DNA of 64,000 bases, taken from positions 1,376,001 through 1,440,000 of the forward strand of contig CAWKDB010000010.1 of NCBI GenBank assembly GCA_963848295.1, given 5' to 3'. Source of the DNA: an uncultured delta proteobacterium. GTDB taxonomy: Bacteria > Myxococcota_A > Polyangia > Haliangiales > Haliangiaceae. Under the pieces are notes generated by a model that was not told the DNA's origin, did not search any database, and saw only the letters and a list, made by a program, of their open reading frames with translations. The position numbers were made by a program, and so were the translations under genes. This document shows, piece by piece, positions 55,248-63,988 of this stretch. The first letter of the stretch is position 1; each line of letters begins with the position of its first letter.

Positions 55248-55293
55248 CGATCACGCGCTAAGAGCCCGGGCAAGTGGTGGTCGTCGGGTGTCG

Positions 55294-55364
55294 CGAGATC
55301 GGTTGGAGTCGAACCAACGCCCCTCCGGTTAACAACCGGCCGCTCTCCGATGAGCTTCGATCTC
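55294..55364 (-). tRNA. Divergent tRNA-Asn(GTT)-like gene
   Basis: Acceptor GAGATCG/CGATCTC with G73; D arm GCTC-ATCGGA-GAGC; CCGG-TTGTTAA-CCGG; T arm GTTGG-TTCGACT-CCAAC. Anomalies: A8, 6-nt D loop, G27-A43; no encoded CCA. Confidence 0.75.
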
Positions 55365-55428
55365 AAATACCGGCGTGTTGCCACGCCGGCAGCGGTCGCA
55401 AGCCGCGCCTTCGCGCTTTCACGTATCG

Positions 55429-55713
55429 CTACGCGCGCGCGAAGTCGGCGATGACCGGCGGCGTCGACGCGTCGAAACCGACGACGTCTAGCATGCCGGC
55501 GTCGGTCGGATCAGCAACGCTGAACCGGTTCGACGTCATTCCGACCACGACCAGCTTGGCCGGAACGCCTCGTGCTTCTCGACCCAACCGTTGGTGCGGC
55601 GAGATCGGCGGAGTCTTGCCGCCGCGGTACGTCCGCAGCGCCGAAAGGATCGCGATCGGGTGAACGCGAGCCTTCGCGAGATGCTGCGGATCGGCGAGCC
55701 GATCCGCGACGTC
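55429..55713 (-). pseudogene. rsr: Ro60/TROVE (Rsr) remnant made of three in-frame fragments
   Basis: RLADPQHLAKARVHPIAILSALRTY + PISPHQRL + AKLVVVGMTSNRFSVADPTDAGMLDVVGFDASTPPVIADFAR; all recognisable Ro60 segments in native order, with most of the protein missing. Confidence 0.85.
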
Positions 55714-55714
55714 T

Positions 55715-55790
55715 CGTGCGAGGAAAAAGTATCGACGGATCGTTCTTGGGCGCACGTCCCGAAGTTGAAATAGCAACGATCCGATCGACG
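55715..55790 (-). ncRNA. Y-RNA-like structured element
   Basis: CGTCGATCGGATCGTT...AACGATCCGTCGA bulged stem, followed by a pyrimidine tract and TCGCACG; directly upstream of the Ro60 remnant. Confidence 0.5.
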
Positions 55791-55831
55791 TAGGAATTGG
55801 CGGCCCTCGTAGGGAACGAAGGCCTAGTGAC

Positions 55832-55873
55832 GCGAATCGCCGTCGGCGCACGAAGCAGCGTTCGGCGACTCGC
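55832..55873 (-). ncRNA. Short hairpin with candidate Ro-binding motif
   Basis: 11-bp stem GCGAGTCGCCG/CGGCGATTCGC with GCCGAACG (55859-55866) next to an internal loop. Confidence 0.35.
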
Positions 55874-55876
55874 TCG

Positions 55877-55949
55877 CCCCACCCCCCGGAGTCGAACCAG
55901 GACCTCTCGGCTTTGCAGGCCGAGCGCGTACCGACTACGCGAGAGTGGG
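55877..55949 (-). tRNA. Divergent tRNA-Cys(GCA)-like gene
   Basis: Acceptor CCCACTC/GGGTGGG; D arm GCGT-AGTCGGT-ACGC; CTCGGC-CTGCAAA-GCCGAG; T arm CCTGG-TTCGACT-CCGGG. Discriminator is G rather than U; no CCA. Confidence 0.7.
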
Positions 55950-56043
55950 GATCGTCTTCAATTTTCATAGACCACTCCAGCTATGTGAGATTGGCTATCT
56001 CGCGTCGGGAGAACCTAAATTGTGAGCCCGTGAAACGGGCCTG

Positions 56044-56084
56044 AAACGACGAAGGGCCGCTTGGCTTGCGCCGAGCGACCCTCG
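56044..56084 (-). terminator. Conditional (attenuator) terminator hairpin
   Basis: GAGGGTCGCTCGGC-GCAA-GCCAAGCGGCCCTT followed by CGTCGTTT (weak U tract); its 5' arm is shared with an alternative stem at 56079-56118. Confidence 0.6.
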
Positions 56085-56106
56085 CAGTGCAACGTGGATT
56101 ACGTCG

Positions 56107-56190
56107 TTACCGCGAGGGAACTCGACCGGAGAGCGCTTCGTTACCCGCTGCGCGGGCCGCGAGAACGTTATGGGTTGGACGCTTCGTCAT
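56107..56190 (-). CDS. Putative leader peptide MTKRPTHNVLAARAAGNEALSGRVPSR
   Basis: ATG shortly after the promoter; the last codons and stop overlap the antiterminator strand. Confidence 0.55.
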   Translation of the reverse strand: MTKRPTHNVLAARAAGNEALSGRVPSR

Positions 56191-56206
56191 AGCTGCGAGA
56201 CTTGAA

Positions 56207-56235
56207 CGATTAACAGGGGGCGTTCGATCTGTCAA
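56207..56235 (-). promoter_or_regulatory. Sigma70-like promoter of the tRNA-like/Ro60 unit
   Basis: TTGACA (56230-56235), 17-nt spacer, TAATCG preceded by TGn. Confidence 0.55.
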
Positions 56236-56281
56236 CGTCTTTCGCGCGTCCAGATCGAGAGTCGCGACTACCACGTTGGAT

Positions 56282-57262
56282 TCAGACTGATTTCGCGACC
56301 GCGATCGTCACCGGCGCGGTCAGGCCGAGCTCGATGTGGCGATGCCGACCGAGCAGCTCGCCGCCGGCCTCGACCGCGGTCTCGCGATCGAGATCGATCG
56401 CGACGCGATCGCACAGGAAGTCCGCCGTATGGTCGGAGAAGTACTCGCCGCGAAACGCCGCAGGGACATGACGGAGCACTTCGATCAAGCCGCCATCGCC
56501 GCAGCGCAGGTGAAATCTGCCGGCGCGCGCGTCGGAGAACGCGAACATCTTCAGCCCGAAGCCGAAGTACGGGATCGTCGCGCCGGCGACCAGCGTACAC
56601 GTGCCGGACCATAGCTCGCGGTCCGCGCCGATCGTCCGGCCGGTGGGTCCGCCGCGCGCCATCTCGATCGCCGGTGCACCGAGGTTAGTCACCGTCGCGG
56701 TCGGACGCGCCGCCGTCGCGAACCGTGGGATCGATCGCAACGCGACAGACAACGCGTAGCGCGCGCCCCCGCCGAGGCCGCGCACGACCGGCACGCGATC
56801 GACGACGCGGCCGAACGCGGCTTGATCTTCGAGTAGCTGCGAGTCGATGCCCAAGCCGACGAACGGAGCTCGGACGCCGAGCACGTCGACCATCGCGAGT
56901 TGTCTCCACACCGATTGCCCGCGCACGAGCCGGCCGAGGTCCGCGGCCACATCGTCACCGGCACCCACCGCGTCGGCGATCGCGTTGCCCGAGCCGAGAC
57001 GCAACATCCCGATCGCCGGCTCGGGCTTGGCGAAGCCGCGACATGCTTCGGCGACGAGCGCGAGCCCCATCACGAGCGTGCCGTCGCCGCCGCCGAGCAC
57101 GATCAGATCGACGCCTCGGCGAATCTCGGCGCGGATCCGGTCGCGCGCATCGTCGAGCGACACGGTGAACCGCACGCCTCCGGGCAGCGCGCGCTCGAGC
57201 TCGTCGGGCAGCCGACCGCGCAACCGCCGCGCATTGCGGTTGATGATCGCGACCGCTCTCAT
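56282..57262 (-). CDS. Diacylglycerol/lipid kinase family protein
   Basis: IINRNA, GGGDGT, LRLGSGNAIA, G.G.D, IPYFGFG; ATGA-coupled to the upstream gene. Confidence 0.88.
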   Translation of the reverse strand: MRAVAIINRNARRLRGRLPDELERALPGGVRFTVSLDDARDRIRAEIRRGVDLIVLGGGDGTLVMGLALVAEACRGFAKPEPAIGMLRLGSGNAIADAVGAGDDVAADLGRLVRGQSVWRQLAMVDVLGVRAPFVGLGIDSQLLEDQAAFGRVVDRVPVVRGLGGGARYALSVALRSIPRFATAARPTATVTNLGAPAIEMARGGPTGRTIGADRELWSGTCTLVAGATIPYFGFGLKMFAFSDARAGRFHLRCGDGGLIEVLRHVPAAFRGEYFSDHTADFLCDRVAIDLDRETAVEAGGELLGRHRHIELGLTAPVTIAVAKSV

Positions 57263-58953
57263 GGGCACAGCTCGCGCACGGCCTCGGCGGGATCCGACGG
57301 GATCACGAGCCGCGTCCGGCCGAACGCGCCGACGAGGTTGTCCCAGAACCTGCCCGCGGTCAGCGGCTCGCGCACGGATGCGAGTAGCTCGGCGACGGGC
57401 TCGCAAGTCATCACGCGGCGCGCCGCAGCGATGCCCTCGGGGCTCGTGCGATCCGGATCGGAGCGCATCACATCGAATGCGGGATCGCCGTACTCGGCGA
57501 GCACCCACGCCCACGGCAGCTGCTTCTCGTGACCGGTGCGCCCGGGGAACGTCGGAGTGATCCGCGCACCGATCGGATCCGCGAGCCCGTATCGGTCGGC
57601 TACTTCGCCGTCGAGCGGCGCGATCGCGCCTGCCGTCCCGAGTTGGTCGGCAACGATCACGACCGGTGTGTCGAGCGTCGGATCGACATGCATGGTCGAG
57701 CCATCGTGATCCCAGTACATCCGGTGCTGCACGCCGGCGTTGCTCGCGCGGCGATAGACGTCCGCGCCAAGGCTCCTGCGCACGTACGCCGCCGCATCGA
57801 CCGGGTGATCGTCTAGGGTCATCCGCACGTACGATTGGCGCTCGTCCCAGTCGCTGTACCAGTCGAACCCGACATCGGTGCCGTGATACGTGCGAACGCT
57901 CGCCGCGATGATCAGCGCCCAACCGGCGACGACCGCGAGCGCTGGCGTGCGGATCGGCACGAGCATCGCCGGCAAGATCAGCAAGAACATCGGCGCGAGC
58001 ATCATCCGCGCGAACATGAAGTCGCCGCCGACCCGCACGACGAAGATCGTGAGCGCGCCCGCCGCCGCGACCGGCGCGATCGCGATGATCCGATCGCGCG
58101 TGGCCAGCGTCTTGCGCGCGATCGCGAGTCCGGCGAGCACGGCGAGTGCGGCGAGTGGCACCCACAACCAGCAGTGCTCGATGAAGTGCCAGACGTAGCC
58201 GAGCCCGTGCAGCCACGCGCTCTTGCCGGCACTCTTCGCGAGCGCGGGCAACGGCACGAGCGAACCGTAGTAGCCGGCGCGAAAGATCTCGTAACCGAGC
58301 GGCAGCGCGATCGCATAGCCGGCGAGCGCGAGCGTCCGCCGGCGCGCCGGCCGGACGAGCAACCAACCCGCGACGAGGAACACCGCCGAGACCAGCGCGA
58401 GGTCGGGCCGGACGAGCGGACCGAGCCCGAACGCGATCGCGGTGGCGACGTGGCGGCGATCGCGCAACGTGACGAGCAGCCACCAGATCGCCGCGAGCCA
58501 GGCGAGCGTCAGCCCGGTCTCGAGCCCGGACGTCGCGAAGTCCCAGAACGGAAACGCGCCGATCAGCACGAACGCGCCGCACGGCGCGAGTCGAGCCGAG
58601 CTGCCCCGCGAGCGCAGCCAGCGGCGGGTCGCGTCCATCGCGATCACCAGCGCGAGCACCGCGAGCGACCCGCCGAGCGCGAGCGCGAGCCACTCGAGGT
58701 TCGCGCGCGTGACGAGCCCGGCGAGCGCGAGCAACCATGGCCACAGTGCGCTGGTGTTCGGCTCGGTGCGCTCGAACAGGTTGAACACCGGGCCGTTGCC
58801 CGCGAGGATCTGGCGCGCGACTCGGACGTCGATCAGCGCGTCATCGGTCATCCAGCGCCGTTGCCAGACGAGCGCGATGAACGCGAGCGTGACGACGATC
58901 ATCCCGACGAACGTCGCGCCGTCGGGCGTCGTTAGCCACGCGCGCCATCGCAC
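57259..58953 (-). CDS. GT-C-type membrane glycosyltransferase (AftB-like)
   Basis: W.TDDALI..RV..Q...GNGPVFN..ER.E.NTS.LW, FATSGLETGL, LVRPD, FR.GYYG.LVP, GGDFMF.R, GHEK. Confidence 0.85.
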   Translation of the reverse strand: MRWRAWLTTPDGATFVGMIVVTLAFIALVWQRRWMTDDALIDVRVARQILAGNGPVFNLFERTEPNTSALWPWLLALAGLVTRANLEWLALALGGSLAVLALVIAMDATRRWLRSRGSSARLAPCGAFVLIGAFPFWDFATSGLETGLTLAWLAAIWWLLVTLRDRRHVATAIAFGLGPLVRPDLALVSAVFLVAGWLLVRPARRRTLALAGYAIALPLGYEIFRAGYYGSLVPLPALAKSAGKSAWLHGLGYVWHFIEHCWLWVPLAALAVLAGLAIARKTLATRDRIIAIAPVAAAGALTIFVVRVGGDFMFARMMLAPMFLLILPAMLVPIRTPALAVVAGWALIIAASVRTYHGTDVGFDWYSDWDERQSYVRMTLDDHPVDAAAYVRRSLGADVYRRASNAGVQHRMYWDHDGSTMHVDPTLDTPVVIVADQLGTAGAIAPLDGEVADRYGLADPIGARITPTFPGRTGHEKQLPWAWVLAEYGDPAFDVMRSDPDRTSPEGIAAARRVMTCEPVAELLASVREPLTAGRFWDNLVGAFGRTRLVIPSDPAEAVRELCP

Positions 58954-62795: not shown

Positions 62796-63217
62796 CGATT
62801 GCGCGCGCCATCCATCCCCACGATCTAGCGCTGCGTCCGCGCGACCACGGACCAGGGCGCAGCTCGTCGAGTCGGTGATTCGGCTGATACCACGCGTGCG
62901 GCTGTTCGCGAATCGGTCCGGCCGGCTGCCGGCCTCCTTCCCACAAACCAAAAAAGGTCAGTAGCAGAGCCTGTGCGGCGATGTGGACGGGTGCGCCGCT
63001 ACCTCGGTGGTCTCGTGGTCATCGCGATCGATCGCGGCGCAGCCGTCCAAGCGAGCGAGGTCAGCCGTGGACGATCGATGGCGAGAACCTCGATCGCGGC
63101 GCGAGCGGCTGTCCGCGCGAGCGCCATCGTCCACAGGCAGGCACGCAACCAGGCTGCTCTAACTTGCGTTGCGCCGGGTCGAGCAGATCCACAACATACC
63201 GATATCTGCCGAATCAA

Positions 63218-63246
63218 TTGACGCGATCGTCGACGTGTGCTACGGT
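63218..63246 (+). promoter_or_regulatory. Sigma70-like promoter of the transposase
   Basis: TTGACG-17 nt-TACGGT, 7 nt before GTG 63254. Confidence 0.55.
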
Positions 63247-63253
63247 GCTCCTC

Positions 63254-63988
63254 GTGGCATCATATTCGCGAAACCGCCAAACTGAGCTCCCACGTCCCGA
63301 CAAGAACGGTCAGCGTCGAGGCGGCAAGCGGCCGGGCGCTGGGCGCAAACCGCGGGGCCTGCGGGCCGGTGTCACGCATGCGAGGCGCGCCGAGCTCGAC
63401 CCGAACAAGCCGCTCCACATCACGTTGCGCGTGGTTGCCGCCGTCGCCGCGCTGCGCACCGACAAGGCGTATCGCGCGATCCGTAAAGCGCTGGAGGTCT
63501 CGGCATTCAACCAACTCGGGCTGCGGATCTGCCACTTCAGCGTGCAGCGCAACCATCTCCACCTGATCTGCGAGGCCGACAGCAAGGCCGCGCTCGCTCG
63601 CGGCATGCAGAGCTTCAAGATCTCGGCGGCGAAGCAGCTCAACCACGAGCTCGGCCGTCGCGGCACCGTGTTCGCCGACCGCTACCACGTCGAGATCCTC
63701 GCCACGCCGACGCAAGCGAGCCACGCGATCAGCTACGTGCTTAACAACTGGCGCAAGCACGGCGAGCACCGCAACACGGCCGGGCTTTACCGCGGCCGCA
63801 TCGATCCGTTCTCGAGCGGCGCACAGTTCTACGGCTGGTCCACGCCGCGCTGGCGCACGAGCGTCTATCCAAGAGGATACGAGCGCGCCGCGATCGCCGC
63901 GCCGCTGACCTGGATGCTCGCTGTCGGTTACCTCCGCGGTAGCCCGGTCAGGGTATTCGCGGTGCCTTCCGGGCGAGCGACGCGCTAG
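63254..63988 (+). mobile_element. REP-associated tyrosine (Y1/HUH) transposase, RAYT-like
   Basis: GG.R.GAGRKP, PLHITLR, HFSVQRNHLHL (HUH), VFADRYH, YVLNN, DPFSSG. Confidence 0.9.

Follow-up and report, generated by a model that had tools for sequence, protein, structure and literature searches.

A probable deletion remnant of a tRNA array with an embedded Ro60 gene, behind a predicted ribosome-sensing leader, in a myxobacterial genome

What is a row of tRNA-like genes, hairpins and fragments of a Ro60 gene doing behind a switchable leader in a myxobacterial chromosome? The question is raised by a cassette of about 0.95 kb that reads on the minus strand, from 56235 to 55293, of a 64,000-nucleotide stretch (the window) of contig CAWKDB010000010.1 from an uncultured delta proteobacterium. 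An earlier note, made from the letters alone, had read it as an attenuator-controlled RNA cassette around a collapsed Ro60 gene. Sequence, tRNA, Pfam and PDB matches bear out the parts, their place and their order: promoter, leader open reading frame (ORF) of 27 codons, switch, tRNA gene with anticodon GCA, two hairpins, four Ro60 pieces, a two-hairpin spacer and tRNA-Asn. Every element listed there is thus present, with the qualification that only two of its three hairpins are free and the third lies within Ro60 coding DNA. That observation is confirmed, and the interpretation built on it is partly supported. We conclude that the cassette is probably what deletions have left of a long tRNA array that encloses a Ro60 gene and lies at the same chromosomal site in related Kofleriaceae, and that its leader is a predicted ribosome-sensing attenuator, still intact in sequence. 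Direct observations are the shared site and gene order, the deletions, a leader stop that keeps its place, and stems that covary.

Cassette DNA was matched in 41 of 61 related genomes, and in 32 of 36 within the genus. At the same site, relatives in the Kofleriaceae carry promoter, leader ORF, switch, tRNA-Phe, tRNA-Lys, tRNA-Gly, tRNA-Thr, a full Ro60 gene (intact, about 530 codons), tRNA-Asn, as many as 20 or so further tRNAs and an HNH gene. Of the 33 loci fetched, 23 start with tRNA-Phe(GAA), and Phe-Lys-Gly-Thr-Ro60-Asn is a recurring order. The HNH gene (PF01844) ends the array in one relative and its pattern was found in many, with none in the window's copy. Full arrays hold 15 to 25 or more tRNA genes around an intact Ro60, a context missed on the first reading of the letters, which had proposed a syntenic comparison; the window's copy holds two, and so lacks the long-array feature itself. 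The site is fixed between a DAG-kinase-like (DAGK-like) gene and downstream alkB-like and comF-like genes. To avoid selection by cassette features, 39 loci were picked through the upstream DAGK-like gene alone: Ro60 was held in 23, 12 of which had 8 to 26 tRNA calls within at most 6 kb; the promoter was kept with Ro60 deleted in six; six had no cassette, and four were too short or unclear. A TROVE domain was found in 61 of 90 other genomes of the genus, and the window's genome, which is 85% complete, gave no TROVE match, no second Ro60-like place and hence no intact rsr. Genome G010 (unpublished; loci L005 and L062) is one row in the locus, leader, tRNA, Ro60-codon, hairpin and rRNA-likeness counts; G010 and G075 are included in the TROVE tally and in that of a second promoter described below, and no conclusion depends on G010 or G075 alone.

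A tree of the neighbour protein (36 rows, with four uninformative loci left out) needs five changes to explain the loss of Ro60, at least four of them forced by supported branches, and Ro60 distances track neighbour distances closely (r 0.90, n 21, 0 of 5000 permutations as high). Together with the shared site, these sequence comparisons indicate that the operon passes down the lineages with its chromosome and has collapsed more than once. Horizontal spread with a patchy distribution, as in tRNA L-arrays, was not seen within the genus, given the fixed site and this correlation; an older transfer of the array into the group may have taken place.

How far the window's copy has been reduced is clearest from its sister (locus L117, 88% identity in the neighbour), where the promoter and the GCA tRNA are the same, the leader has 33 codons, and Ro60 can be read without a stop over 391 codons, to where the contig ends. 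Set beside the sister, the window's leader is shorter by 18 nt, with the frame preserved, and roughly 80 nt of spacer are missing. Ro60 lacks its ribosome-binding site and start as well as three internal stretches, which leaves it about a quarter of its codons, and no array gene remains past tRNA-Asn. At fourfold sites of the neighbour, 64 of 189 positions differ, against 1 of 45 in the promoter, 6 of 98 in the switch, 2 of 74 in the tRNA and 8 of 84 in the hairpins, and the Ro60 pieces differ at 5 of 74 and 4 of 90. By these substitution counts, the RNAs have been constrained since the split from the sister, and the Ro60 pieces likewise. Because the pieces are conserved as much as the RNAs, Ro60 would have been intact for most of the time since that split, and stems that still pair beside a decayed protein, which the earlier note had stressed, are no sign of selection here; the idea that RNA outlives the protein does hold genus-wide for one hairpin inside Ro60. 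Contigs from three other runs are about 96 to 99% identical to single pieces and stop at the window's junctions, one of them joining two pieces with unlisted letters between. Near-identical DNA from other soils that ends at the junctions, and the open Ro60 of the sister, suggest that the deletions in the window are recent. A short-read contig spans 55489-56364 with no differences (its run may be the window's source sample), so the junctions within that span are not long-read errors. Among the sequencing runs listed as containing this DNA none was of RNA, which is neutral as to expression. The window's copy is most likely a recent relic heading for loss, as in several sister lineages, and of the two alternatives put forward at the outset the recently eroding locus suits it better than a transcript of surviving RNAs.

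The leader's promoter has a form, TTGAC-N17-TAnnCnT, common to the leaders of 24 relatives (a 25th leader was found by hand), and the same form precedes a housekeeping tRNA-Ala of this genome. The leader peptide, of 27 to 66 codons, is unconserved except for CAT at codon 6-7 after the start in 20 of 25 leaders (TAT in two, AAT in one, other codons in two), mostly preceded by CCA or CTA; all are rare codons in this genome, at 1.6 to 4.3 per 1000. Among 1183 leader codons, amino acid shares stayed within about twofold of the genome, which is not the composition of a trp- or his-type leader rich in the sensed amino acid; nor does the leader spell out the codons that the array's tRNAs read. The trp and his leaders are a more distant likeness. 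The position of the stop is conserved: a GC hairpin, itself conserved, follows the first in-frame stop at a distance of 25 to 36 nt in 24 of the 25 leaders and in none of 50 other frames, a count weakened by the fact that the start codons of these 25 were picked through a motif noticed in the same data. A further 33 metagenome loci were picked up through the promoter alone; the same start rule could be applied to 21 of them (some near-duplicates), and all 21 passed, with none in the other frames, giving a distance of 25 to 37 nt over both sets. A looser start rule was passed by 8 of 10 more metagenome loci and 15 of 20 further genome loci, and a similar leader layout, with starts chosen afterwards, is seen in four arrays that lie at other sites, three of these in other families.

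Computed folding gave two mutually exclusive structures in the window's leader. Its antiterminator reached -32.4 kcal/mol compared with -22.2 for shuffles (p 0.005), and 21 of 25 leaders did better than their shuffles (p<0.05). When strands were permuted between loci, own pairs were the stronger (-20.5 vs -16.9 kcal/mol, 0 of 20000 permutations as good), as were those of the window (-21.5 vs -12.2 kcal/mol with the strands of other loci), where one altered arm base is matched by changes in both alternative partners. In the window, masking the stop as covered by a ribosome raised the terminator probability from 0.07-0.15 to 1.00. That the leader is a transcription attenuator, as the earlier note had proposed, is well supported by the placing of the stop and the covarying antiterminator strands, its sequence being still intact in the window, and it likely opens transcription of the array only on ribosome stalling, which makes the proposed link to translation stress a likely one. 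The absence of rtcA, rtcB and rtcR from the locus also held up: rtcB lies 1.7 Mb away, and rtcR was not found in the 85% complete genome. The same attenuator was looked for ahead of this genome's rtcB and none was seen.

We postulate that a ribosome reaching the leader stop would cover the antiterminator strand, allowing the terminator to form and leaving the array silent, and that with a ribosome stalled or not loaded the antiterminator would form first and RNA polymerase would read into the tRNAs, Ro60 and the HNH gene. Under translational stress, an intact operon could in this way provide an RNA-surveillance protein along with tRNAs that serve as spares or decoys. From the window's copy, induction would yield only the tRNA of mixed Phe/Cys identity, some hairpins and perhaps tRNA-Asn (Table 1).

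Table 1. Features of the cassette and its upstream neighbour, in window coordinates.
Feature	Position	Strand	Evidence
Sigma70-type promoter TTGACA, 17 nt, TAATCG	56207..56235	-	Same form in leaders of 24 relatives; sister differs at 1 of 45 nt
Leader ORF of 27 codons; codon 7 is CAT (His); stop codon 28 nt ahead of terminator arm	56107..56190	-	
Predicted antiterminator, last codons of leader ORF with 5' arm of terminator	56070..56126	-	Shuffles, strand permutation
Predicted terminator hairpin, U-run weak and interrupted	56044..56081	-	Folding; failed generic terminator scan
tRNA-like gene, array tRNA-Phe body, CUGCAAA (Cys-reading) loop, discriminator G73	55876..55949	-	
Hairpin 1, conserved stem, 3x3 internal loop, small pyrimidine loop, one GNCGAAN0-1G match	55832..55873	-	
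Hairpin 2 and GCCAA, the spacer found ahead of tRNA-Gly in full arrays	55797..55824	-	
Ro60 piece 1, about residues 79-104, folds as conserved RNA hairpin, then U-run	55716..55790	-	
Ro60 piece 2, about residues 295-325	55626..55715	-	
Ro60 piece 3, about 8 residues near 420	55584..55607	-	
Ro60 piece 4, final 50 codons and natural stop	55429..55582	-	
Conserved two-hairpin spacer, Ro60 stop to tRNA-Asn	55365..55428	-	
tRNA-Asn(GTT), array gene after Ro60; short D-loop; A8 instead of U8, shared with most orthologues	55293..55364	-	
DAG-kinase-like gene, fixed upstream neighbour and anchor, outside the cassette	56282..57232	-	PF00781

Both tRNA genes of the window were called, the GCA gene at 44.2 bits with the Rfam tRNA model and the GTT gene at 58.4 bits; both cloverleaves pair, and their arm order is normal. 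The stems of tRNA-Asn covary among the loci (418 of 442 cells paired; 0 of 2000 column shuffles reach this). This genome has its own separate Phe, Cys and Asn tRNA genes, so the array tRNAs are supernumerary and the earlier description of them as spare stands. The GCA gene, called tRNA-Cys-like at first, aligns with the array Phe genes and not with the housekeeping Cys gene, and is a remodelled orthologue of the array tRNA-Phe with the same loop in the sister, which rules out the GCA anticodon as a private decay mutation of the window. At position 73 it has G in the window and A in the sister, A73 being present in nearly all Phe orthologues. According to a passage of PMC5389517, U73 is a determinant for cysteinyl-tRNA synthetase (CysRS); the gene thus has a Cys anticodon and lacks the discriminator of a tRNA-Cys, and because U73 is absent and the Phe anticodon lost, its product is likely uncharged. 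The CUGCAAA loop also occurs on a free hairpin ahead of tRNA-Phe in some relatives, and our guess is that it moved from there. That free hairpin was considered as a mimic of a Cys anticodon and rejected, as its loops vary widely and CTGCAAA is in the minority; its loop is probably a stable GCAA-type loop. Relatives' array tRNAs show conserved departures from consensus (C33 in tRNA-Gly(GCC), A8 in Asn and often G37 in Phe), and CCA is mostly not encoded.

The identity of the protein remnant is firm by sequence, with a match to Pfam vWA_Ro60 (E 4.8e-18) and matches to Ro60/Rsr chains in PDB (E 2.5e-16 to 7.4e-13), which we take to be Xenopus, human and Deinococcus structures, over two separate stretches in two alignments. 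Codons 84-99 of Ro60 form a stem of 9-12 bp followed by a U-rich run. The synonymous codons that make this stem are nearly invariant in 25 intact genes of this site (CGG, GTT, GAT and CCG in 25 of 25, TTT in 24), whereas at three of the five positions other codons are found in three Ro60s that come from other sites. The hairpin is present in 12 of 20 Ro60-deleted copies, some from one shared deletion event; three of them carry changes in both strands of the stem, a pair is broken in one, and in two the U-run is largely missing. It could be a terminator acting on untranslated Ro60, a processing site or a Ro60-binding site. Deletion ends can, moreover, be drawn to hairpins. In the window, since the Ro60 start is gone, this hairpin would always be free to form, and it may cut off tRNA-Asn.

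The earlier note had staked its reading beforehand on covariation of stems in orthologous loci, and the stems covary. For hairpin 1, 412 of 480 cells are paired in 40 variants (at most 359 in column shuffles) and for the terminal stem after Ro60, 167 of 168 cells in 21 variants (at most 146); 0 of 2000 shuffles reach either value, with the caution that relatedness inflates covariation. The spacer after Ro60 is kept in all 20 Ro60-deleted copies when scored with a loose pattern. The window's hairpins were also tried as rRNA mimics and rejected, being no better than shuffles (at least 32 of 300 as good).

Further RNA elements of the relatives' arrays are missing or worn in the window. In full arrays, a conserved structured stretch between terminator and tRNA-Phe ends in a CTCTGACAA-CGAAG motif and GAT repeats; the window retains a worn trace of it at 55975-55950. 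After tRNA-Asn, L033 4938-5200 and its orthologues encode an RNA of about 200-250 nt, absent from the window, in which up to 30 nt are identical to the genus's 23S rRNA, presumably around helix 69. This likeness was matched in 21 loci (some duplicates), compared with at most two in an opposite-strand control, and no Rfam family matched the RNA. It is possible that it is an rRNA decoy, or the array's real Y RNA. Also after tRNA-Asn, tRNA-like genes with a long variable arm lie in L040, L042, L043, L048, L055, L060, L061, L032 and L045 and in L033 (5206-5290; 38 bits with the tRNA-Sec model). ARAGORN often misses these genes, which collapsed copies often keep, and they appear to resemble the irregular allo-tRNAs described in part of PMC5389517. 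Past its Ro60 remnant, the otherwise collapsed array of L061 has several near-identical tandem tRNA-Leu-like copies whose anticodon loops differ. Related Ro60-tRNA arrays occur at other sites in L052, L053, L054, L056 and L058, four of them with a similar leader layout; that of L053 is beside rtcA (confirmed), and that of L058 is beside a candidate rtcB-like frame.

A number of results weigh against parts of our account, and alternatives have to be judged with them in view. A generic scan found no promoters and no terminators at the locus, which speaks against the terminator, and the U-run is interrupted in most copies. In equilibrium folds with a ribosome at codon 7, terminator probability fell below 0.5 in only 4 of 25 leaders; the pairing probability computed ahead of synthesis of the 3' arm did not discriminate (shuffles gave 0.34-0.79), and placing a ribosome at the stop brought it below 0.5 in no more than 13 of 25. 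RNAalifold on a plain MAFFT alignment gave almost no consensus structure (-2.3 kcal/mol), because stems vary in length, and shuffles and strand permutation were used in its place. The leader of L039 stops early, L072 has the promoter with the leader deleted, and, as the loci are related and the sets overlap, the counts overstate independence. Because equilibrium favours the terminator in most relatives, the switch must be kinetic, with an antiterminator that forms first and persists. The interrupted U-run, the negative scan and the rarity of equilibrium switching would also suit a leader that couples translation to RNA processing, pausing or Rho loading, with a hairpin that is no intrinsic terminator. 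However, the geometry (a stop about 28 nt before a GC hairpin, a pyrimidine tail and an exclusive alternative helix) is that of attenuators with an upstream ORF (uORF), and several copies have runs of 5-7 U, so that we regard this alternative as improbable. Control of translation initiation as the leader's output is excluded, because the first downstream genes are tRNAs. The claim that the hairpins are true YrlB-like Y RNAs that bind Ro60, in a decaying Ro60/Y-RNA system, is compatible with an attenuated array. Hairpin 1 is the best Y-RNA-like candidate: it combines a bulged helix with a small pyrimidine loop, carries GCCGAACG, adjoins Ro60 on the same strand and covaries, and excerpts of PMC4201824 describe YrlB-type RNAs as long hairpins with no tRNA domain and list putative YrlA in the myxobacteria Plesiocystis and Sorangium, at 189-389 nt from Ro60. 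The Y RNA motif given in the same excerpts, GNCGAAN0-1G, nevertheless occurs by chance at 1.5 per kb and in only 8 of 34 element variants, about 45 nt is short for a Y RNA, Rfam gave only tRNA matches at the locus, and the YrlA model (RF02553) had no match there in any of five genomes (the window and four relatives). YrlA-type RNAs, as first suggested, are therefore not supported, and we consider true Y RNAs unlikely.

The remaining alternatives concern what the reduced copy is for. It might be a streamlined, still selected RNA-only unit, in which stress-induced decoy tRNAs and hairpins were kept and Ro60, most tRNAs and HNH discarded. The low divergence of promoter, switch and tRNA relative to neighbour fourfold sites and the preservation of frame by the 18-nt leader deletion count against a relic and fit such a unit, as do the two cloverleaves that pair, the GCA tRNA shared with the sister at 72 of 74 sites, and the hairpin inside Ro60 that persists in other deleted copies with changes on both stem sides. 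Yet the Ro60 pieces are as conserved as the RNAs, leaving little time for decay; surviving parts differ among lineages, and 6 of 39 loci lost everything; the genome already has Phe, Cys and Asn tRNAs; and G73 suits neither Phe (A73) nor Cys (U73). We hold this explanation to be distinctly unlikely. A frame of 179 codons (55968-55429), running through the tRNA to the Ro60 stop, is open, has GGAG 6 nt ahead of its ATG and joins pieces 2-4 in frame, but in the sister translation from this ATG would end after 10 codons, both Ro60 domains are mostly gone, piece 1 is read out of frame, and an Arg replaces a Gly invariant in 28 intact Ro60s; that it encodes a functional small protein is barely credible. 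The deletion remnant of an attenuated array thus remains our preferred explanation. A bolder version, which is speculative and somewhat unlikely, would make the array a myxobacterial chromosomal translation-rescue operon with two RNA checkpoints, the leader attenuator opened by stalling and an RNA within the Ro60 coding sequence that outlives the protein; it would deliver spare or decoy tRNAs, Ro60 and often an exact 30-nt copy of 23S helix 69, and its reduced copies would be selected as RNA-only decoys.

Known systems share parts of this organisation. Passages of PMC8421152 present tRNA L-arrays as typified by the Anabaena PCC 7120 trn operon, which parts of PMC10272220, on cyanobacteria, describe as controlled by the repressor TrcR. 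Relatives' arrays likewise form a long one-strand row of supernumerary tRNAs with an HNH neighbour; a sigma70-type promoter and a link to RNA-repair genes are further likenesses, and induction by translational stress is a likely one. They differ in their control, which here is a leader ORF with alternative hairpins and in Anabaena a repressor on promoter repeats, in having Ro60 inside the array, and in their fixed site with repeated deletion within the genus, whereas L-arrays are patchily acquired; the window's copy, moreover, has only two tRNA genes. In supplement rows of PMC8421152, Haliangium ochraceum has no array of more than four genes, and Sorangium and Chondromyces have up to 8-9. The mycobacterial whiB7 uORF attenuator, as set out in part of PMC10274678, has a leader ORF variable in length and sequence, with efficient translation giving termination and stalling giving antitermination, the logic predicted here. 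Unlike whiB7, the present leader would gate tRNA genes and Ro60 and not a transcription factor, and it has no strong amino acid enrichment, a rare-codon pair (mostly CCA or CTA, then CAT) at codons 6-7 and a weak U-run. As in the Salmonella rsr-yrlBA-rtcBA operon under RtcR (PMC4201824, in part), Ro60 lies with structured RNAs in one predicted transcript, some related arrays adjoin rtcA, and a response to damaged translation machinery is a likely common theme; here, unlike in Salmonella, rtcR, rtcA, rtcB and YrlA are missing from the locus and the RNAs are tRNA cloverleaves of ordinary order. The Deinococcus radiodurans rsr locus also has Ro60 beside a polycistronic precursor of tRNA and small hairpin RNAs (PMC4201824, in part); the present arrays differ from it in their 15-25 or more tRNAs and their predicted leader attenuator. 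In the literature searched, which lacked most subscription papers, we found none that brings Ro60 together with a tRNA array and attenuation, and none on attenuator control of either Ro60 or a tRNA array.

Elsewhere in this genome, a second promoter of the leader's form lies near 563975 on the minus strand of contig G000:C2. It is conserved in many genomes of the genus and precedes a 412-codon gene that is phospholipase-D-like by eye; it was tried as a further cassette and rejected, since it heads an unrelated protein gene. The DAGK-like, alkB-like and comF-like flanking genes were assigned by Pfam. The window also holds a frame like REP-associated tyrosine transposases, by eye (62981-63988, plus strand), and a 564-aa membrane protein with no Pfam match (57259-58953, minus strand).

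The window's copy, probably a relic, is of value mainly as a pointer to the intact system, and the intact genus-wide operon with its leader is the interesting object. With full, reduced, Ro60-less and absent copies, the genus offers a natural deletion series that shows which RNA elements persist. The leader would tie bacterial Ro60 to translational stress without RtcR. Induction of a silent tRNA array is known for one cyanobacterium, through a repressor; a ribosome-sensing leader ahead of such arrays, if true, would be a second, protein-free solution.

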